Of a stretch of DNA of 64,000 bases, positions 1,516 through 20,812 are shown piece by piece. Location: positions 36,965 to 100,964 of the forward strand of contig JBDHIS010000005.1 of the NCBI GenBank assembly GCA_039587315.1, given 5' to 3'. The position numbers and the translations under genes are program-made. How positions within the stretch are numbered: the first letter of the stretch is position 1; the number at the start of each line of letters is the position of its first letter. The notes under the pieces were generated by a model that had not been told where the DNA came from, searched no databases, and saw only the letters and a list, made by a program, of their open reading frames with translations. The stretch comes from Gemmatimonadota bacterium (GTDB lineage: Bacteria > Gemmatimonadota > Gemmatimonadetes > Gemmatimonadales > GWC2-71-9).

Positions 1516-1550
1516 ACCGCCCCTCAGGCCGATGCCTGCGGGGCGGTTTG
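1516..1550 (+). terminator. Rho-independent terminator after the Spy-like gene
   Basis: Stem ACCGCCCC (1516..1523) / GGGGCGGT (1540..1547) with inner CAGGC/GCCTG pairing, followed by TTT. Confidence 0.55.
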
Positions 1551-1585
1551 CACTTGGGGACCGGCTGCGGCAAGATACGTGAGCC

Positions 1586-2701
1586 ATGCCGTCCAACGAG
1601 CGGATCCGAATCACGTACGAATTTGCGCTCGCCGAAGGCGAGACACCCGAGGCGGGAGCTCGGCGCATTGCCCTGGAGCAGACCGTCGAGCTGCCGGACG
1701 GCTGCTATCCGGAGAGCATCGAGGAGGCTGTCGTTGCGCGGGTAGAGGAGACCGAGGACCTCGGTGGGGCCCGTTGCCGCGCGGCGTTGTCGTTCGACCC
1801 CGTCTTGGTCGGCACGGAGGTCCCGCAGCTCCTCAACATCATCTTCGGCATGGTGTCGCTGCTGCCGGCGACCCGAGTCGTGGATCTCGAGCTGCCCGAT
1901 ACGCTGCTGCTGCGCTACGCCGGTCCGCGGTTCGGAATAGAGGGGATTCGCGCGGCCTGCGGCAATGTCCAGGGGCGTCCGCTGCTCTGCACGAGTGCCA
2001 AGCCGGTAGGCCTGTCGGCGGCCGAGCTGGCTTCCATTTGCGGCGCCCTGGCGCGTGGCGGCATAGACGTGGTGAAGGACGACCACGGCGTAGCGGATCA
2101 GGCGACGGCTCCGTTCGCGGAGCGTGTCGCCCGTTGCAGCGAGGCGGTGCAGCGGGCCAACGACGCCACGGACGGATCGGCCGTCTACTTCCCCAACGTG
2201 ACCGCTCCCGCGACCGAGTTGGTAGACCGCGTTCAGACGGCCAAGGCGGCCGGGTGCCAAGGGGTGCTGGTGAGCCCGTTTGCGACGGGGCTCGACACCG
2301 TGAGGTGGCTGGCCGAGAACAGCGGCATGATCGTCCTCGTACACCCGACCTTCTCGGGAGCGCTGTACCACGCAGATCACGGCGTCGCGCCGCACGTGCT
2401 GGGCCGCCTTCTGCGTGTGCTGGGGAGCGACGGTGTGACCTACGTGAACGCCGGGGGGAGATTCCCCGTGTCGGAGCAGGAGTGTCACGTTGTGAACGAG
2501 AGCCTGCGCGGGCCGCTCGGATCGCTGCGGGCGGCCCTTCCGGTGCCGGGAGGGGGCATGGACGTGGGCAGGGTGGAGTACTGGACCGAGCGTTACGGGG
2601 TGGAGACGATGTTCCTCATCGGGAGCAGCCTGTATGCGCAGGGCGACCTGGAAGCGGCGAGCAGGAGGTTGGTGGACGCGGTGAGCAGGGCGGCCGGCTG
2701 A
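1586..2701 (+). CDS. RuBisCO large-subunit-like protein (form IV RLP), short variant
   Basis: [10 protein letters not shown]...[15 protein letters not shown] matches the RuBisCO GPxxGI...[16 protein letters not shown] block. DVVKDDHG matches DFTKDDEN, and PVPGGGM matches the PVxSGG loop. Only 371 aa. Confidence 0.8.
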   Translation: [371 protein letters not shown]

Positions 2702-2704
2702 GCC

Positions 2705-3634
2705 TCATCCCACGACCGAACGCGCTACGAACCAGAGATTGGCGGGCCGCTCCGCCAACCGGCGCATGTACCAGGGGAACCAGGCGTCTCCGTAGCTGAT
2801 CAGCGTGCGCATCACGTTGCCGTCTGCGGCCAGCCGCAGCTGCTCCTCGCGCCGGATTCCGTACAGCATCTGTATCTCGTATGCGCTCTTCGCGATTCCC
2901 GCACCCTCGGCAAAATCCCGGATGCGTGTGACCAGGCCGAGGTCGTGGGTGCCGAAGGCGGGATAGACTCCCTCGGGCCGCGCGTCCTCGGCCAGCAGGC
3001 GCTTGGCCAGCTTGAAGTAGTTGGCGTCCACGTCCGCCTTCTTGGGGAAAGCGATCCGCGGTGGCTCGTTGTAGGCGCCCTTCACGAGGCGGATCGTGGC
3101 CGAGAGAGGCACGAGAGACTCGAGGTCCTCAGCCGTGCGGTAGAGGTAGGCCTGCAGGCACACTCCCAGATTTGAATGCTCGGCACGCACGGAACGGAAG
3201 ATCTCGAGCGTGGCGTCGACGTAGGAGGAGCTCTCCATGTCGATGCACACGAAGTTCCCGTGCGCAGCCGCTTGCTTCAACACCGCAATGAGCTGCTCGG
3301 TGCAGAGGTCGCGGCTGATGTCGAGGCCCAGCTGGGTCAGCTTGACCGAGAGCTGCGTCTCGAGCCCCCGGCGCTCGATCCGCTGCAGCGCGTCCACGTA
3401 GTGCTGCGCGACTGCGTCGGCTTCCGCCCGGTTGGTGATGGCCTCACCCAGCTGAGTGATCAGGGTAGGGATGTTCCGCTCGCCCAGCTGCTCCGCGGCA
3501 GCGAGCGCGGCGTCGACGTCCTCGCCCGGCATGAAGCGCCGCACGGCCCGCTGGGTGAACCCGCGCCGGCTCGCGCGGTCGGCCAACCAGCTGCTTTCCG
3601 AGGCCTTGAGAAGAAGGGTGCGCATCAATCCCAT
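2705..3634 (-). CDS. Proline dehydrogenase (monofunctional PRODH)
   Basis: 309 aa with RLVKGAYNEP, FGTHD, EIQMLYGI and C-terminal WFPWYMRRLAERPANLWF, typical of the PutA-type PRODH barrel. GGAG SD 8 nt upstream. Confidence 0.8.
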   Translation of the reverse strand: MGLMRTLLLKASESSWLADRASRRGFTQRAVRRFMPGEDVDAALAAAEQLGERNIPTLITQLGEAITNRAEADAVAQHYVDALQRIERRGLETQLSVKLTQLGLDISRDLCTEQLIAVLKQAAAHGNFVCIDMESSSYVDATLEIFRSVRAEHSNLGVCLQAYLYRTAEDLESLVPLSATIRLVKGAYNEPPRIAFPKKADVDANYFKLAKRLLAEDARPEGVYPAFGTHDLGLVTRIRDFAEGAGIAKSAYEIQMLYGIRREEQLRLAADGNVMRTLISYGDAWFPWYMRRLAERPANLWFVARSVVG

Positions 3635-13884: not shown

Positions 13885-15519
13885 ATGGAACTCAAGGGCA
13901 AGACGGTACTCATTCTGGGCGGCAGCGGGTTGGTGGGACGGGCGGTGGCACGCAAGCTGCTCGACTTTCGGCCCAGGAGAATCGTACTCGTAGCGCTGTA
14001 CGAGGACGAGGTGACTGAGGGTTCCGAGCGGCTGTCGGCGCACGCCGGCAAGACCGAGATATGCGCCGAGTGGGGCGACGTGTTCGTACCGACCAGCGTC
14101 GCGAAGCTGGAGCGGAGCGAGATGCTGTCTGATCCGGCGCACCGCGAGCTGGTGTTGGGGGACATTCTCGGCGAGCTCAATCGGGAGGTCCTCGAACGGA
14201 GCTTTCTATTCCAGCTATTCCAGCGCTACGAACCCGACGCCGTGGTCGACTGCATCAACACCGCCACGGCGTTCGCGTATCAGGACGTGTTCCACAGCTC
14301 GCGGGCGCTACTCGAGGCTGCGCGCTCCGGCCCCGTCAGCCGCGAGCACGTGGAGGAGCACATCCTCTCCATTCCGATGCCGCAGCTGATTCGCCACGTG
14401 CAGATCATGCTGGAGTGCCTGAGGACCTTCCCGACGGAAGCCTACATGAAGATCGGGACCAGCGGCACGGGAGGCATGGGTCTCAACATCCCATACACCC
14501 ACTCCGAGGAGCGTCCGTCCCGCACGCTGCTCACCAAGTCGGCCGTGGCCGGAGCTCATTCGCTGCTGCTGTGGCTGGTTGCGCGGACTCCCGGGGCGCC
14601 TGCGACGATGGAGATCAAGCCCACGACGGCCATTGCCTGGCGCGACCTCGCGTACGGTCCGGTGCGCCGCAAGGGACAGCCGGTGCAGAAGATCGACTGT
14701 CCCAAGCCGCTCGACGTGGGCGGCGCGTTCGGGACCGATGCGGGCGGTTGGGTGGACACCGGTTCGGTGCTCGAGTCGGTTTGGGCCGACTGCGGGGAGA
14801 ACGGGCAGTTCGCGCGCGAGGAGTTCGAGACGGTCACGTCACTGCGCCAGATGGAGTTCATCACGCCCGAAGAGGTGGCGGCGTACGTCGTAATGGAGTT
14901 GCAGGGACATCCGACCGGCCGCGACGTCATGACGGCACTGGACGCGGCCACGGCCGGCCCTACCTACCAGGCGGGAATCCTGCGCGCGTTCGCCATAGAC
15001 CGGCTGAAGGAGCTCGAGAAGCGGCACCGCCTTCACTCGGTGGCGTTCGAGAGCCTGGGGCCGCCGCGCCTCACGAAGGCGCTGTACGAGGCGTTCGTGC
15101 TCTCGAGGTTGCGCGGGTCCGTGGCGGAGTTGGCCAAGAGCGATTCAAAGTCACTTTCAGCGGAGGCGGTAGACCTGATTGCGCTGGACGCTGAGCTGCG
15201 CTCCACCATAGTGTCCGTGGGTCTTCCGGTGATCGTTCCGGACGGGAAGGTTTATAGGGGAGAGGTGGTCATCATCCAGCCGGAGGGCGGCGACGTTGAG
15301 CAGGCAGTGGCCCGTGGCTGGGTCGATGTGCGGCCTGAGAACGTCGGCGTCTGGGTCGAGCGCGCCAAGCGCGTCGTGCAGCAGGCCGAGGCACGCGGGG
15401 ACGGGTCGGACAGCGGAGTCGAGTGGGGCGCGATGGAGCCGGGCGATGCCATAGGGCCGGCCAGGTTCGCGACCTGGATCTTCCGCAACGAGGAGGAAGG
15501 AGAGCGCTTCAAGCGATGA
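13885..15519 (+). CDS. Uncharacterised 544-aa cytoplasmic protein with N-terminal NAD(P)-binding Rossmann motif
   Basis: GKTVLILGGSGLVGRAVARKLL dinucleotide-binding motif at residues 5-26. No signal peptide or TM, and the remainder is not recognisable to me. Stop overlaps the moxR start (ATGA at 15516..15519). Confidence 0.7.
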   Translation: MELKGKTVLILGGSGLVGRAVARKLLDFRPRRIVLVALYEDEVTEGSERLSAHAGKTEICAEWGDVFVPTSVAKLERSEMLSDPAHRELVLGDILGELNREVLERSFLFQLFQRYEPDAVVDCINTATAFAYQDVFHSSRALLEAARSGPVSREHVEEHILSIPMPQLIRHVQIMLECLRTFPTEAYMKIGTSGTGGMGLNIPYTHSEERPSRTLLTKSAVAGAHSLLLWLVARTPGAPATMEIKPTTAIAWRDLAYGPVRRKGQPVQKIDCPKPLDVGGAFGTDAGGWVDTGSVLESVWADCGENGQFAREEFETVTSLRQMEFITPEEVAAYVVMELQGHPTGRDVMTALDAATAGPTYQAGILRAFAIDRLKELEKRHRLHSVAFESLGPPRLTKALYEAFVLSRLRGSVAELAKSDSKSLSAEAVDLIALDAELRSTIVSVGLPVIVPDGKVYRGEVVIIQPEGGDVEQAVARGWVDVRPENVGVWVERAKRVVQQAEARGDGSDSGVEWGAMEPGDAIGPARFATWIFRNEEEGERFKR

Positions 15520-16490
15520 CGTCACGCGCCGTGAAGGCTCCCGACGCGGCAGTCACGACTGCGGTCGTGGAGGAGGTGCGCAAGCGCGTTGTGGGGCAGG
15601 AGGCAATGATCGAACGCCTGCTCGTGGGGATCCTCACGGGCGGGCACATCCTGTTGGAGGGCGTCCCCGGCCTCGCCAAGACCCTCGCGGTGCGCACGCT
15701 GGCAGAGGTGATTCGCACCACGTTCCAGCGGATTCAGTTCACGCCCGATCTGCTGCCGGCAGACATCATCGGCACGATGGTCTTCGATCAGAGGACCGGC
15801 GAGTTCCGGCCCAAGCGCGGTCCGCTCTTCACCAACATCCTGCTCGCCGACGAGATCAATCGCGCCCCCGCCAAGGTGCAGGCCGCCCTGCTGGAGGCGA
15901 TGCAGGAGAAGCAGGTGACCATCGGCAGCGAGACTCACGCCCTGGACGAGCCGTTCCTGGTGCTCGCCACCCAGAATCCGATCGAGCAGGAGGGGACCTA
16001 CCCGCTGCCGGAGGCGCAACTCGACAGGTTCATGCTCAAGGTGTTCGTCGGCTATCCGAACCGTGACGACGAGAAGGAAATCCTGTGGCGCATGGCCGGT
16101 GGGCAGGACATCCCGGTTAGTCGCGTGGCCGACCCCGAGGAGATCCTCGCCATCCGGCGCACGATCGCCGAGTTGTACATGGACCAGAAGATCGTCGACT
16201 ACATAGTCGACGTGGTGCGTGCCACGCGGGAGCCGCAGTCGATCGGCCTTCACGAGGTGCGCCCCCTCATCGCCTACGGCGCGAGCCCGCGCGCGTCCAT
16301 CTACCTGGCGCAGGCAGCCAGGGCGCACGCCTTCCTGCGCGGCCGCGCTTATGTCGTTCCCGAGGACATCAAGGCCATGGCGCCCGACGTACTGCGGCAC
16401 CGCGTGTTGCTCACGTTCGAGGCCGAAGCCGAGGACATCACCTCCGACGGGGTGATCCATAAGATCCTGGAGGCCGTGGACGTCCCGTGA
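15516..16490 (+). CDS. moxR: MoxR-family AAA+ ATPase
   Basis: Walker A GVPGLAKT, Walker B LLADEINRA, VLATQNPIEQEGTYPLPEAQLDRF. Start trimmed to MTSRAV (15516). Confidence 0.9.
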   Translation: MTSRAVKAPDAAVTTAVVEEVRKRVVGQEAMIERLLVGILTGGHILLEGVPGLAKTLAVRTLAEVIRTTFQRIQFTPDLLPADIIGTMVFDQRTGEFRPKRGPLFTNILLADEINRAPAKVQAALLEAMQEKQVTIGSETHALDEPFLVLATQNPIEQEGTYPLPEAQLDRFMLKVFVGYPNRDDEKEILWRMAGGQDIPVSRVADPEEILAIRRTIAELYMDQKIVDYIVDVVRATREPQSIGLHEVRPLIAYGASPRASIYLAQAARAHAFLRGRAYVVPEDIKAMAPDVLRHRVLLTFEAEAEDITSDGVIHKILEAVDVP

Positions 16491-17383
16491 CGCATCCGTC
16501 CCGCATCGTCGGGGCCGACGTGTTGCGTCAGGTGAAAACGATAGAGCTGCGCACACGCCGGCTCGTCAACACGCTCTTCTCCGGTGAATACCGCTCGGTT
16601 TTCCGTGGACACGGCATGGAGTTCGCGGAGGTGCGGGCCTACCAGCAGGGCGACGACTACCGCTCGATAGACTGGAACGTCTCGGCGAGGATGGGCTCGC
16701 CGTACGTGAAGACGTTCATGGAGGAGCGTGAGCTCACGCTCCTCTTGGTCGTGGACCGATCGGGTTCTGAGGAGTTCGGCGCTCCGGTGGCCAAGGCCGA
16801 GCTGGGCGTCGAGGTGGCTGCGGTCCTCGCCCTGGCGGCCGCCCGGCAGAACGACCGGGTCGGCGGGCTCATCTTCTCGGGTGGGATCGATCACGTGGTC
16901 CCGCCGCGCAAGGGACGGTTGCACGCCCTGCGCATCGTGCGCGACCTGCTCGCCTTCCAACCGCAGGACCGGCGCACGAACATCGCGTCCGCACTCGCGT
17001 ACGCCACGCGGCTGCTGCGGCACCGCTCCATCGTCGCTGTTCTCTCTGACTTTCGCGCGCCCGGATGGGAGGAGGCGCTCGGCCGTCTGACCCGGCGCCA
17101 CGAGGTCGTGGCCATCACGGTCGACGACCCGCGCGAGTTCGAGCTCCCCGACGCCGGGTGGATCGAGCTCGAGGATGCTGAATCGGGTGAGCGTGAGTTG
17201 GTGGACACGTCGCACGGACCGACACGCCTCGCTCTCGCGATGGCCGCGGAAAAGGTACGGCTTTCTCGCTCCCGTGCGCTCAAACAGGCGCAGGTGGATC
17301 ACATTGCCCTGCGCACCGACCGGCCGTATGCCGAGGCACTTCACCGCGCGTTCGCCGAGCGCGCGCGGCGGCTCAAACGGTGA
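16487..17383 (+). CDS. DUF58 protein (MoxR-associated, vWA-like)
   Basis: GEYRSVFRGHGMEFAEVRAYQQGDDYRSIDW is the DUF58 signature. GTGA overlap with moxR. Confidence 0.8.
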   Translation: MTHPSRIVGADVLRQVKTIELRTRRLVNTLFSGEYRSVFRGHGMEFAEVRAYQQGDDYRSIDWNVSARMGSPYVKTFMEERELTLLLVVDRSGSEEFGAPVAKAELGVEVAAVLALAAARQNDRVGGLIFSGGIDHVVPPRKGRLHALRIVRDLLAFQPQDRRTNIASALAYATRLLRHRSIVAVLSDFRAPGWEEALGRLTRRHEVVAITVDDPREFELPDAGWIELEDAESGERELVDTSHGPTRLALAMAAEKVRLSRSRALKQAQVDHIALRTDRPYAEALHRAFAERARRLKR

Positions 17384-18216
17384 CGGCGCTCTTCCTCCTT
17401 CTCGCGCTGCAAATGCCGACCTGGACGGTGACTCCGGTCCCGGCGACCGTGGGAGACACCGTTCGGCTCGTGCGCCGTGTTCGAACGGCGCCCGATGTGC
17501 AGGCACGGCTTCGGTCGCTGGACGCTACTGCGCTGGTGGAGCCGCTCAGCGCACCGCGCGCCGCCTACGCCGAAGGCGCACTCACGATTCTCTACACGGT
17601 GGCTCTGTTTGCGCCCGGCGAACACGCCGTGGCGATGCCGGACGCGGAGCTGCTCTACCCGGATGGGCGCGTGGAGACGCTCACGGGTGATACGGTGATG
17701 ATCAACGTGGCGACCGTGCTTCCGGCGGGCGATCCGCTGCCGCCGGCCCTACCCGCCAGAGCGCCGCTCGAGCGCCGGCTGCAAAGATCCATCCCTCTGG
17801 CGGGGCTCGTGCTCGGCGTTCTGGCGTTGGGACTCGGATGGGCTGCGTGGCGCCGCCGTGACCGGCCCCGACCCCGGAGCAGAACGGCATCCGACGTGCG
17901 CCCCGACCCTCCCATCGGCAACTGGATGGAAGCCGGCGAGCCACGGGCTGTCGCCGCCGTGACGGCCGACCGCTTGCGCGCGCACATCGCCAGAGTGGCG
18001 CCGGAGGCGGGACGCCACCTCGACACGGATGAGTGCATCAGCGTGCTGGAGGCTTCGGATCATCCGTTGCCGATGCGGGAGTTGACGGAGGTGCTGCGGT
18101 CGCTGGAGCGGGCACGTTTCTCGCCGGCGGTCCCCAGCGACGTGGTCGAGCTCGTGCAGCGCGCCGAGCGCGTGTCGCGCGAGTTGGAACCGCCTCTGCT
18201 CGAGGAGGTGCTATGA
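17380..18216 (+). CDS. Bat-operon membrane protein (DUF4381-like), unknown function
   Basis: One central TM (IPLAGLVLGVLALGLGWAAW), C-terminal LERARFSP motif as in the small protein between DUF58 and BatA in Bat operons. Overlaps both neighbours by 4 nt. Confidence 0.55.
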   Translation: MTALFLLLALQMPTWTVTPVPATVGDTVRLVRRVRTAPDVQARLRSLDATALVEPLSAPRAAYAEGALTILYTVALFAPGEHAVAMPDAELLYPDGRVETLTGDTVMINVATVLPAGDPLPPALPARAPLERRLQRSIPLAGLVLGVLALGLGWAAWRRRDRPRPRSRTASDVRPDPPIGNWMEAGEPRAVAAVTADRLRAHIARVAPEAGRHLDTDECISVLEASDHPLPMRELTEVLRSLERARFSPAVPSDVVELVQRAERVSRELEPPLLEEVL

Positions 18217-19193
18217 TCTTCGCGCGCCCCCTGGTACTCCTGCTCCTCCTGATCCTGCCTCTCTGGTGGTGGCGCCGCCGCACCCGACCCACACCGGTCG
18301 CGACGTACAGCGACGCCAGGCAGCTCCACGCGGCCCGCTCGCAGCGGCGCTGGTTGGCGGGATTGCCCGCGGCGCTGCGCACGCTGACGCTCGCCGCCTG
18401 GATCGTGGCGGCTGCAGGGCCGGAGTACGGCGTCTCTTCGATGGACACCGAGAGCGAGGGAATCGCCATCGTGCTCGCGGTGGACGTTTCCAGCAGCATG
18501 CTGGCCGAGGACTTCGCGCCGTCCAATCGCCTCGACGTTGCCAAGGAGCAGTCGGTCTCGTTCATCACGGGGCGCGAGTACGACCGCATCGGGCTGGTGT
18601 CCTTCGCCGGCGAGGCACTCACGCGCGTCCCGATCACGGTCGACTACACGGTGCTAGAGCAAGCGGTGCGGGGCCTGCGTGTCGGGGAGCTCGAGGACGG
18701 CACGGCTATCGGCACCGCAATCGGCACGGCGGCGAACCGTCTCAGGCGCGCACCGGGGGCGAGCAAGGTGGTGGTGCTGCTCACCGACGGCGAGAACACG
18801 CGTGGGATGCTCGACCCGCGCACTGCGGCCGAGGCCGCGGCCCAGTTCGGCATCAGGATATACACGGTTGGAGTGGGTACCGAGGGCGAGGCGCCGATGC
18901 CGATCGGGCGGGGCACGCAAGGGCAGCTGCGCTATCAGACGCTGCCCGTGCGAATCGACGAAGAGCTGCTCGAGGACATCGCACAGCTAACCGGCGGACG
19001 CTACTTCCGCGCCACCGACCCTGAGGCCCTGAACCGCATCTTCCAGCAGATCGATCGGCTCGAGAAGACGCCGGTGGTAGTCACGCGCTACACCCAGTAC
19101 AACGAAGCGTTTCACCTGCCTCTCTTCCTCGGGCTGGGCGCGCTCGGCTTCGAGTTGCTGCTCGCCGCTACCATCGTCGTACGGGTGCCGTGA
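18213..19193 (+). CDS. batA: BatA-type vWA-domain membrane protein
   Basis: N-terminal TM MIFARPLVLLLLLILPLWWW, MIDAS DVSSSM, LTDGENT, C-terminal TM. Start trimmed to ATG 18213 (ATGA overlap). Confidence 0.85.
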   Translation: MIFARPLVLLLLLILPLWWWRRRTRPTPVATYSDARQLHAARSQRRWLAGLPAALRTLTLAAWIVAAAGPEYGVSSMDTESEGIAIVLAVDVSSSMLAEDFAPSNRLDVAKEQSVSFITGREYDRIGLVSFAGEALTRVPITVDYTVLEQAVRGLRVGELEDGTAIGTAIGTAANRLRRAPGASKVVVLLTDGENTRGMLDPRTAAEAAAQFGIRIYTVGVGTEGEAPMPIGRGTQGQLRYQTLPVRIDEELLEDIAQLTGGRYFRATDPEALNRIFQQIDRLEKTPVVVTRYTQYNEAFHLPLFLGLGALGFELLLAATIVVRVP

Positions 19194-20812
19194 TGAGCTT
19201 CGACCTGCCTCAACTGCTGTGGCTCGCGCCGGTATTCGGACTCTTGGGTGCGCTGCTCGCGCTGTGGTGCAGGGGGGCGCGCGTGGCGCATGCCCGCAGG
19301 TGGTCGGTGCAATTGGCGGAGCGAGCTGCGCGGTTGGGACGCTCCGGTCCGTGGGTAATTGGTCTCGTTGCGGTGGGCGCCACGCTGGCTATCGCCGGGC
19401 CGCGCTGGGGGAGCCGGGTGGTCGTGGCGGAAACCAAGGGGCTGAATCTGGTCATCGCGCTCGATATCTCGCGCTCGATGCTCGCGGAGGACGTACCGCC
19501 GTCGCGACTGGAGCGCTCCAAGCGGCAGGCCCGCCGGCTGGTCCACGATTTGGGTGGCGATCGCATCGGACTCGTGGCGTTTGCGGGGCAGAGCTTCACG
19601 CTCTCACCGCTCACGGTGGACGGTGGCGCGCTCAACCTGCTGATCGAGGCGATGGACCCCGAGCTCACGAGCGCCGCCGGCACCGGGCTCGCAGCGGCAC
19701 TCGAACGCGGGCGCGAGTTGCTATTCGCCGGTGATCCCGTCGCCGATCGGGTACTGGTCGTGTTCACAGATGGAGAGGCGCACGACTCGCTGACGCCGAT
19801 CCTGGAAGCTGCGGAGCGGTTGCGCCGCGAGAGAGTGCGTTTGGTGCTGGTGGCCGAAGGCGGGGTCGAGCCGGTGCCGATACCGGTGCGCGATCTGGAC
19901 GGTACAATGACGGGCTACCAGCGCGACCCGATGGGGGAGATTGTCGCCACCGCCCGCCGCGACGACATACTCACAGCCGTTGCCGATGCAGCCCAGGGAG
20001 TTCTGGTTGCGGCGCAGCTCGCGGACCAGGCGGGCGCGGTGCGCGACCTCGTCTCGGCCTACAAGCGCTCACCGCAGGCCACGTCCACCGCGGCGCAGGA
20101 CATCTCGCGCGCGTGGATCCCACTCCTGATCGCCACCGTGATCCTGCTCGCGCACACGTTCACGCGGCGCTCGATGGCGCTCATCTCGCTGATGCTGCTC
20201 CTGGCCAGTGGTGGGGTCGCGAACGCGCAGGGACCGCGCAACCTGGGTGACGAGGCGTGGGCTCGAGGCGACTTCGCGGAGGCCGCGGCGCACTACTTGG
20301 TGCAGGTGCGTGCTGGCGAGGGTGGTGACACGACCTACTACAACCTCGGCACCGCCGCCCTCGCCGCCAACGACACTGCGCTTGCGCGGCGCGCGTTGGA
20401 GCGCGCCGCGGAATCGTTGGAGCCGGATCTGCGGTTCCGCGCCCTCTACAATCTGGGATTGCTGCACCTCCACCTGGCCGACCAGGACAGCTCCCAGGCC
20501 GCGGCGCACATCGAGGCGGCGGCGCGCAGCTACCGGGAGGCGCTGTTGCTGCGGCCGCATGACGATGCCGCCAAGTGGAACATGGAACTCACGATCCGCC
20601 GTATGCCGCCCCCTCCAAGCGGCGGGCAGCCGCCGCCGGGCGGTGGGGAAGGCGGCGCGCCCCCGCCTGAGGCGCCGCCGCCGCCGCAGGGCCTCTCGGC
20701 CGCGCAGGCGCAGCAGATCCTCAACTCCATGGCCGACGAGGAACGGCGCACCAGGGCGCGCCAACTCGGCCAGCGCCAGCGTCGCGAGACGCGGGGGCAC
20801 AAGGAGTGGTAA
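19193..20812 (+). CDS. batB: BatB-type vWA protein fused to BatC-like TPR domain
   Basis: MIDAS DISRSM, VFTDGEAHD, central TM, then TPR-like repeats (YYNLGTAALA, LYNLGLLHLHLAD), a Pro-rich segment and a basic tail. Start ATG 19193 or GTG 19190. Confidence 0.8.
   Translation: MSFDLPQLLWLAPVFGLLGALLALWCRGARVAHARRWSVQLAERAARLGRSGPWVIGLVAVGATLAIAGPRWGSRVVVAETKGLNLVIALDISRSMLAEDVPPSRLERSKRQARRLVHDLGGDRIGLVAFAGQSFTLSPLTVDGGALNLLIEAMDPELTSAAGTGLAAALERGRELLFAGDPVADRVLVVFTDGEAHDSLTPILEAAERLRRERVRLVLVAEGGVEPVPIPVRDLDGTMTGYQRDPMGEIVATARRDDILTAVADAAQGVLVAAQLADQAGAVRDLVSAYKRSPQATSTAAQDISRAWIPLLIATVILLAHTFTRRSMALISLMLLLASGGVANAQGPRNLGDEAWARGDFAEAAAHYLVQVRAGEGGDTTYYNLGTAALAANDTALARRALERAAESLEPDLRFRALYNLGLLHLHLADQDSSQAAAHIEAAARSYREALLLRPHDDAAKWNMELTIRRMPPPPSGGQPPPGGGEGGAPPPEAPPPPQGLSAAQAQQILNSMADEERRTRARQLGQRQRRETRGHKEW

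Follow-up and report, generated by a model that had tools for sequence, protein, structure and literature searches.

Is the RuBisCO-like protein (RLP) encoded near the start of this DNA stretch a representative of an uncharacterised clade, or a member of a family whose reaction is known? The stretch, called the window here, comprises 64,000 nucleotides from a bacterium of the Gemmatimonadales. A preliminary description had taken the open reading frame (ORF) in question for an orphan, unusually short form IV RLP, and a histidine at the position of a metal-binding glutamate had been read as a possible sign of altered metal chemistry. The ORF starts with an ATG, encodes 371 amino acid residues and has a GC content at third codon positions (GC3) of 0.85, similar to that of the adjoining genes. 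Its product matched the Pfam profile RuBisCO_large (PF00016) with an E-value of 2.8e-24 and 86 bits, above the cut-off of 30.1. The ORF is real and encodes a form IV RLP. The features that had looked exotic can be recognised as ordinary hallmarks of the DeepYkr family, and what we report is mainly a correction.

The closest solved structure was identified with phmmer in the Protein Data Bank (PDB). The entry 3QFW aligned to residues 5-363 of the window RLP (E 5e-65, 223 bits), and weaker matches were obtained with the next family, MtnW (2.5e-39), with the Photo RLP of Chlorobaculum tepidum (8e-34) and with 3NWR (7.6e-20). An AlphaFold2 (AF2) model with a predicted local distance difference test (pLDDT) score of 93.7 was then compared with known structures by Foldseek. 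Again 3QFW was at rank 1 (TM score 0.93, root-mean-square deviation 1.8 A), under the title "Rubisco-like protein from Rhodopseudomonas palustris", and the top matches were RuBisCO or RLP structures throughout, with a TIM barrel and an N-domain. 3QFW is 100% identical to the R. palustris protein P0121, which has a native length of 368 residues, and comes from another strain than RPA2169. The assignment to an uncharacterised clade has to be withdrawn in the light of these matches: the RLP is a member of the DeepYkr family, which is already known, has been crystallised (3QFW) and has a reaction that was shown experimentally.

The RLPs of the IV-DeepYkr type from Rhodospirillum rubrum and R. palustris (RLP1) are 5-methylthioribulose-1-phosphate 1,3-isomerases of the methylthioadenosine (MTA)-isoprenoid shunt, where they recycle a sulfur by-product of S-adenosylmethionine metabolism. 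R. palustris has two RLPs, RLP1 (RPA2169, DeepYkr type, with the cupin RPA2170 adjoining) and RLP2 (2QYG, Photo type). The characterised anchors in our comparison were R. palustris RLP1-type proteins; the R. rubrum RLP was not among the matches listed. More than 1000 homologs were found at E <= 1e-10; those listed belonged to Gemmatimonadota, Acidobacteria, Acidimicrobiales and other groups.

The window RLP is not short for its family. Among the 120 matches listed, the homologs were mostly 362-390 residues long, family members typically have 365-390, and the known DeepYkr RLPs (about 366-375 residues) aligned over the full length and shared the fold. Compared with a form I enzyme, the N-terminus is about 37 residues shorter, close to the 36 residues estimated before. 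The C-terminus is about 47 residues shorter and an internal deletion removes about 15 residues; the earlier figure of 60-70 residues had lumped these two together.

The catalytic residues were assigned in a MAFFT alignment of the window RLP with spinach RbcL (residues 111-475, checked to be 100% identical to 1IR1/8RUC), MtnW of Geobacillus kaustophilus (2OEK), the C. tepidum RLP (1TEL) and two R. palustris RLPs. The register between the RLP and spinach RbcL was unambiguous in the C-terminal domain. K175 (K139 in the RLP), K201 (K164), D203 (D166) and H294 (H253) of the spinach enzyme are kept, whereas K177 is replaced by V141, E204 by H167, R295 by P254, H298 by S257, H327 by T285 and K334 by R292. 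S379/G380/G381 correspond to G322/G323/G324, and G403/G404 to G346/S347. The full residue set of RuBisCO forms I-III is thus missing at eight positions (K177V, E204H, R295P, H298S, H327T, K334R, S379G and G404S). The explicit alignment bears out the motif register of the preliminary description, including the retained K201 and D203, the Val for K177, the His for E204, the H-P pair and the loop-6 Arg. With both K334 and the P2 phosphate site lost, the protein is not a carboxylase and will not fix CO2, as had been noted before for form IV RLPs.

A family alignment of 118 members was made from the window RLP, 32 protein-database matches, the RLPs of 80 genome loci and 4 alphaproteobacterial proteins, with 2 outgroups added. 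The residues K139, K164, D166, H167, H253, P254, R292, F293, G323 and G324 were invariant in 118/118 members, the R. palustris proteins included, whereas the H167 position is a Glu in the MtnW and Photo outgroups. Because the histidine is invariant across the family, in the crystallised 3QFW as well as in the characterised R. palustris RLP1 type, the change from E204 to His is a known clade hallmark. Judged from the alignments, this histidine, the loop-6 Arg and the short length mark a normal DeepYkr protein and do not point to a new clade or a new metal chemistry. The RLP nests in a clade that has been characterised and shows the residue pattern of its members; the preliminary description had itself named this, along with a conserved pathway context elsewhere in the genome, as speaking against its proposal.

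The other form IV types were compared in the same way. MtnW of the IV-YkrW type is a 2,3-diketo-5-methylthiopentyl-1-phosphate enolase (G. kaustophilus 2OEK/2OEM; Bacillus subtilis 2ZVI), and its substrate in methionine salvage is a methylthio-pentulose 1-phosphate. It shares with the window RLP the fold, the equivalents of K175, K201, D203 and H294 and the Pro in place of R295. However, MtnW has a Glu at E204 where the window RLP has a His, and a Ser at the K334 position where it has an Arg. MtnW is also about 40 residues longer and scored 139 bits in phmmer, compared to 223 for 3QFW. The MtnW profiles stayed below their cut-offs as well (NF007095, 161.6 bits with 409 needed; TIGR03332, 126 with 513.6 needed). 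The IV-Photo RLPs (C. tepidum 1YKW/1TEL and R. palustris RLP2, 2QYG) have the same fold, keep K175, K201 and D203 and carry an Arg at K334, but they retain E204, have 430-450 residues and gave weaker scores of about 120 bits. According to PMC5893883, RLP2 of R. palustris is not involved in MTA metabolism. The profile of the apiose/tetronate pathway (OiaX-type, NF042437) scored 80 bits against a cut-off of 700, and no sugar-acid kinase or related gene was found among the annotated neighbours. By analogy with characterised RLPs, the window protein is most likely a homodimer.

The genomic context of the family was surveyed in 80 loci from many phyla, with one genome per species, and cupins were detected by tblastn with the R. 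palustris cupin. A cupin homolog lies directly 3' of the RLP in 30/80 loci and was flagged as fused to it in another 6/80, which gives 36/80 together. One such fusion (L021) was verified by Pfam as a single protein of 539 residues with a RuBisCO_large and a Cupin_2 domain. Fusions of 526-544 residues were seen at L021 7983-9602, L025 7992-9593, L022 7995-9578, L056 1091-2725 and L066 1085-2665, in metagenome-assembled genomes of Brocadiaceae, Scalindua, Magnetocorallium and Chitinivibrionales. These fusions are Rosetta-stone support for the RLP and the cupin as a functional pair. In L085, the CGA-type R. palustris homolog P0163, of the RLP1 type, likewise has a Cupin_2 gene overlapping its 3' end, which is the RPA2169/RPA2170 arrangement.

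A second arrangement has a split transketolase directly 5' of the RLP. It was found in 26/80 loci, some of them with MtnA and MtnK, and occurs in several genomes, from Bacillota and from other phyla, as the operon mtnK-mtnA-tktN-tktC-RLP. Longimicrobiales show the order RLP-cupin-MtnA. The MtnA and MtnK of the RLP operons exceeded the NCBIfam equivalog cut-offs. A full-text literature search found no paper on the combination of RLP, transketolase and methylthioribulose. A derived cupin-less subclade lies 3' of the split transketolase, with Transketolase_N followed by Transket_pyr/C (L018 3638-9131, L036, L067, L071 and L081).

Neither partner was seen in 17/80 loci, several of which have truncated flanks; one of them (L027) has a cupin immediately upstream of the RLP. 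Partnerless RLPs with adequate flanks of several kb were observed at L008, L009, L019, L043, L079, L038 and L068, several of them in Gemmatimonadota. Because of these further loci, unlinked DeepYkr-type RLPs are recurrent and not specific to the window. The DeepYkr-type family is widespread across many phyla and has at least three genomic flavours, namely cupin-linked or fused, split-transketolase-linked (some with MtnA and MtnK) and unlinked. The cupin, MtnA and MtnK contexts together with the match to Rru_A2000 tie the family firmly to 5-methylthioribose/ribulose-phosphate metabolism. Rru_A2000 is the 1-methylthio-xylulose-5-phosphate methylsulfurylase.

Two further neighbours were noted in the survey. 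A gene for a phosphoribulokinase-family kinase (NF005655, 283 bits with a cut-off of 236) lies upstream of the RLP-cupin pair at L007 6850-9550, L010, L011 and L026, and partially at L012, in Ectothiorhodospiraceae, Alkalilimnicola, Aquisalimonas and Lysobacteraceae. It immediately adjoins the RLP in L007, and ORFs intervene in some loci, such as a GGDEF gene in L026. This kinase may be a chance neighbour from the Calvin-Benson-Bassham genes or may feed the RLP. On a metagenome contig (L095 3890-6317) the RLP-cupin pair is followed by a DeoC-family gene, similar to deoxyribose-phosphate aldolase.

A neighbour-joining tree was calculated from corrected p-distances and bootstrapped 100 times; partial sequences from the PDB alignments served as outgroups. 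The RLP family was separated from the MtnW and Photo outgroups with a bootstrap of 77/100. The window RLP was placed among cupin-associated lineages of the family, with a bootstrap of 87 for its own lineage, and the R. palustris RLP1 group formed a separate branch inside the family.

To what extent the RLP is an orphan became clear from its syntenic relatives. The window and its relatives share the order Pro_racemase, 2-oxoacid:ferredoxin oxidoreductase (PFOR), ferritin, LTXXQ, RLP, convergent proline dehydrogenase (ProDH) and outer membrane protein genes. In the two loci L090 and L093, whose RLPs are 65-66% identical to that of the window, the order is PFOR-ferritin-LTXXQ-HisPhos-RLP-cupin-ProDH. 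Their Cupin_2 gene, the canonical partner, encodes 143 residues and stands directly 3' of the RLP, with an overlap of 8 nt at the RLP stop; the L090 cupin matched Rru_A2000 (3JZV) at 1.3e-29. The window locus has no such gene. The RLP abuts ProDH throughout this cupin-less lineage, which consists of L001, L092 (85% identity), L086 (75%) and L088 (68%). No remnant of the cupin was detected by tblastn at E <= 1 in the cupin-less loci of this lineage or in the whole window. A SixA-like His_Phos_1 gene of 156 residues lies upstream of the RLP in divergent orientation at L090 5474-5944 (-), L093 5443-5916 (-) and L094 5490-5960 (-), and is absent from the window. The window sub-lineage has thus lost two genes from the locus, the cupin and this upstream phosphatase. 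L094 (P0013) is cupin-less too, yet it grouped with the cupin-plus P0010 at 100% bootstrap. It follows that the cupin was lost at least two times in one syntenic group of Gemmatimonadales while the RLP was kept. The orphan status claimed before therefore applies to the window sub-lineage only, whereas L090 and L093 have the partner at the same place.

The ratio of non-synonymous to synonymous substitutions (dN/dS) was determined between the window and L092, both cupin-less. It was 0.17 for the RLP, 0.135 for ProDH, 0.08 for PFOR, 0.34 for ferritin and 0.31 for LTXXQ. The RLP reading frame is intact in relatives down to 68% identity. Because dN/dS is low and the frame intact, we conclude that the RLP is maintained by purifying selection despite the loss of the cupin.

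Apart from the missing partner, the window RLP is distinguished by few residues. Of the DeepYkr signature it carries KDDH, HP, GGRF, the GG phosphate (P1) loop and the retained K175, but not the Asn at the equivalent of RuBisCO N123, which is replaced by Met89. It deviates from family positions conserved to at least 85% only at A51, M89, S137, D196 and E340, among which Met89 stands out. In G. kaustophilus MtnW this place is held by the catalytic Lys98, the equivalent of N123. Position 89 is Asn in 110/111 other family sequences; Met was found in the window RLP and its four closest relatives, P0002-P0005 (plus one other sequence), and the subclade of the window and P0002-P0005 had a bootstrap of 100/100. 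This is the least certain of the assignments; its register was taken from the phmmer alignment to 2OEK and from the helix-Gly-X pattern in the AF2 structure. When spinach was aligned directly with MAFFT, the result was ambiguous at this place and N123 fell opposite Ile85; this was rejected, since the spinach sequence starts at 111 and the MtnW alignment and the AF2 model favour Met89. Because the cupin-less P0006 and P0007 lack Met89, the exchange arose after the loss of the cupin. The lineage-specific twist of the window RLP is minor, consisting of a lost partner gene and an Asn-to-Met exchange at one conserved site.

Taken together, our results indicate that the window RLP, a DeepYkr-clade protein whose partner gene was lost, is probably an isomerase in 5-methylthioribulose-1-phosphate metabolism. 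By homology to RuBisCO, MtnW and RLP1, a carbamylated Lys164 would bind a divalent metal together with Asp166 and His167, and the metal would polarise the carbonyl at C2 of a ketose 1-phosphate, whose single phosphate would be bound by the retained P1 site (G323, G324 and G346). At the former P2 site (R295, H298 and H327), the small or hydrophobic P254, S257 and T285 may leave room for a non-phosphorylated methylthio tail. Enolisation would shift the carbonyl from C2 to C4 and convert 5-methylthio-D-ribulose 1-phosphate, the product of MtnA, to 1-methylthio-xylulose and 1-methylthio-ribulose 5-phosphate. In the relatives, the next enzyme would be the cupin methylsulfurylase encoded directly 3', with 1-deoxyxylulose 5-phosphate and methanethiol as products. 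In the window organism this step may be encoded elsewhere, replaced or absent.

Several points speak against this assignment. The window RLP shares only 35-38% identity with those R. palustris RLP1-type proteins whose biochemistry has been studied, and differs from them in lacking an adjoining cupin, in the Met for Asn and in its host, which belongs to the Gemmatimonadales and not to the purple non-sulfur alphaproteobacteria. It reached no cut-off in the NCBIfam profile search, and the Joint Genome Institute (JGI) label is merely "ribulose-bisphosphate carboxylase large chain". No cupin or MtnA homolog was found by tblastn in the 64-kb window, where MtnP was not searched for. If there is no methylsulfurylase, the RLP product would be without a known fate. 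In addition, the Asn-to-Met exchange at a near-invariant position could change the substrate or the activity.

The missing partner can be accounted for in different ways. The cupin and the upstream salvage genes might have been relocated in the chromosome, leaving the RLP with its canonical function in an unlinked pathway; this is plausible though less likely than not, and is folded into our best explanation, but it would determine if the pathway is complete. It would fit the purifying selection on the RLP and the intact catalytic signature, and in R. palustris mtnP and mtnA are likewise unlinked from rlp1-cupin (PMC5893883). However, the three inspected cupin relatives directly follow and overlap an upstream gene, which is the RLP in L090 and L095; in L097 it is a contig-truncated, unannotated ORF. 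These loci are not decisive for the window genome. A stand-alone cupin was not seen among the inspected loci, and a search of 5.8 billion proteins returned no cupin more than 70% identical to that of L090. A new function after the cupin loss, with the later exchange of Asn89 to Met, is less probable still. The same enolisation would then be applied to another ketose phosphate, such as 5-deoxyribulose-1-phosphate or another MtnA-like product, or be followed by another downstream enzyme. The absence of the cupin from a lineage that keeps its RLP under purifying selection and the Met in place of a 99%-conserved Asn in a fully supported subclade would agree with this, as would about 10 further family loci that have neither partner despite adequate flanks. 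Partners have also been swapped at least once in the family, from cupin to split transketolase or the reverse, apparently with another downstream enzyme. On the other hand, no other catalytic or phosphate-binding residue has changed, and the two changes are not coupled, as P0006 and P0007 are cupin-less but have Asn89. The cupin-less loci show no alternative conserved neighbour either, since ProDH, LTXXQ and ferritin belong to the synteny shared with the cupin-plus relatives, and pathway genes in bacteria are often unlinked. Retention of the RLP without the cupin, together with the Asn-to-Met exchange, could mark a switch to another substrate, or to another way of processing 1-methylthio-xylulose-5-phosphate downstream, but we think this improbable; if true, the pathway would have a third variant in addition to those linked to the cupin and to the transketolase.

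That the RLP is a decaying, non-functional relic of a broken operon is very improbable. The cupin and His_Phos_1 genes that flank the RLP in the cluster have both disappeared and a near-invariant Asn is replaced, but relatives of as little as 68% identity retain an uninterrupted frame, dN/dS is 0.17-0.25 as in housekeeping neighbours, GC3 is normal, the catalytic residues are all conserved and the AF2 model is confident. An uncharacterised clade with a novel metal chemistry from the Glu-to-His ligand change is refuted. His167 does stand at E204, but it does so throughout the family, including 3QFW and R. palustris RLP1-type proteins that were assayed with MgCl2. These assays contained 2.5-10 mM MgCl2 in the MtnK/MtnA/RLP mixtures, and MnCl2 was added with the cupin in the coupled assay (PMC5893883). 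The isomerase reading is the one we prefer. Should unlinked RLPs be active in the absence of a cupin, what becomes of 1-methylthio-xylulose-5-phosphate is a testable question, and so is the function of the transketolase-linked form.

Features of the RLP locus, with coordinates in the window
Feature	Position	Strand	Basis
Terminator-like GC-rich hairpin (ACCGCCCC..GGGGCGGT), then TTGCACTT	1516..1555 (hairpin 1516-1547)	+	113-nt fold -61.5 kcal/mol, z = -5.0
RLP coding sequence, 371 aa, DeepYkr-type form IV, predicted 5-methylthioribulose-1-phosphate isomerase	1586..2701	+	ORF, GC3, Pfam PF00016, 3QFW match, AF2/Foldseek
Met89, aligned with G. kaustophilus MtnW K98 (N123 equivalent)	1850..1852	+	Asn in 99% of family
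K139-P140-V141, K175 equivalent retained, Val for K177	2000..2008	+	K139 invariant; family position 141 is V/M/L/Q
K164-D165-D166-H167 (KDDH), carbamylatable Lys and metal ligands, His for E204	2075..2086	+	Aligned to spinach K201/D203/E204 and G. kaustophilus MtnW K173/D175/E176
H253-P254, H294 retained, Pro for R295 (P2 phosphate site)	2342..2347	+	Both invariant in family
R292-F293, loop-6 region, Arg for K334	2459..2464	+	Invariant in family
G322-G323-G324, P1 phosphate-binding loop retained (S379/G380/G381 equivalent)	2549..2557	+	Alignments
Junction without partner cupin: RLP stop 2699-2701, 3-nt spacer, ProDH stop 2705-2707	2699..2707	.	Sequence check, synteny
Monofunctional ProDH, convergent	2705..3634	-	Pfam Pro_dh 5.5e-34; NCBIfam ProDh_Thermus 278 bits, below cut-off

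The placement of the RLP between a terminator and a convergent ProDH, as first described, was confirmed by the strong fold of the hairpin and by the ProDH gene 3 nt past the RLP stop. The hairpin lies between the LTXXQ gene and the RLP, 37 nt 5' of the RLP start. It was not called by a strict consensus terminator scan, which overlooked it because the T-run is short. The gap between the LTXXQ gene and the RLP is only 104 nt, and there is almost no space for a separate RLP promoter after the hairpin.

The Thermus-type ProDH and a Pro_racemase-family gene (L001 4411-5475) flank the block in all syntenic Gemmatimonadales contigs. ProDH and Pro_racemase were considered as functional partners of the RLP and rejected, since both flank cupin-plus and cupin-minus loci equally. 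This suggests that genes of proline or hydroxyproline catabolism have been kept near the RLP without being related to it. According to Pfam, 20 further ORFs of the window have housekeeping or unrelated functions. At 15423-20812 the window also carries a cluster of the Bat/MoxR-vWA type, where a MoxR AAA+ ATPase is joined by a DUF58/vWA protein and by more proteins with vWA domains.

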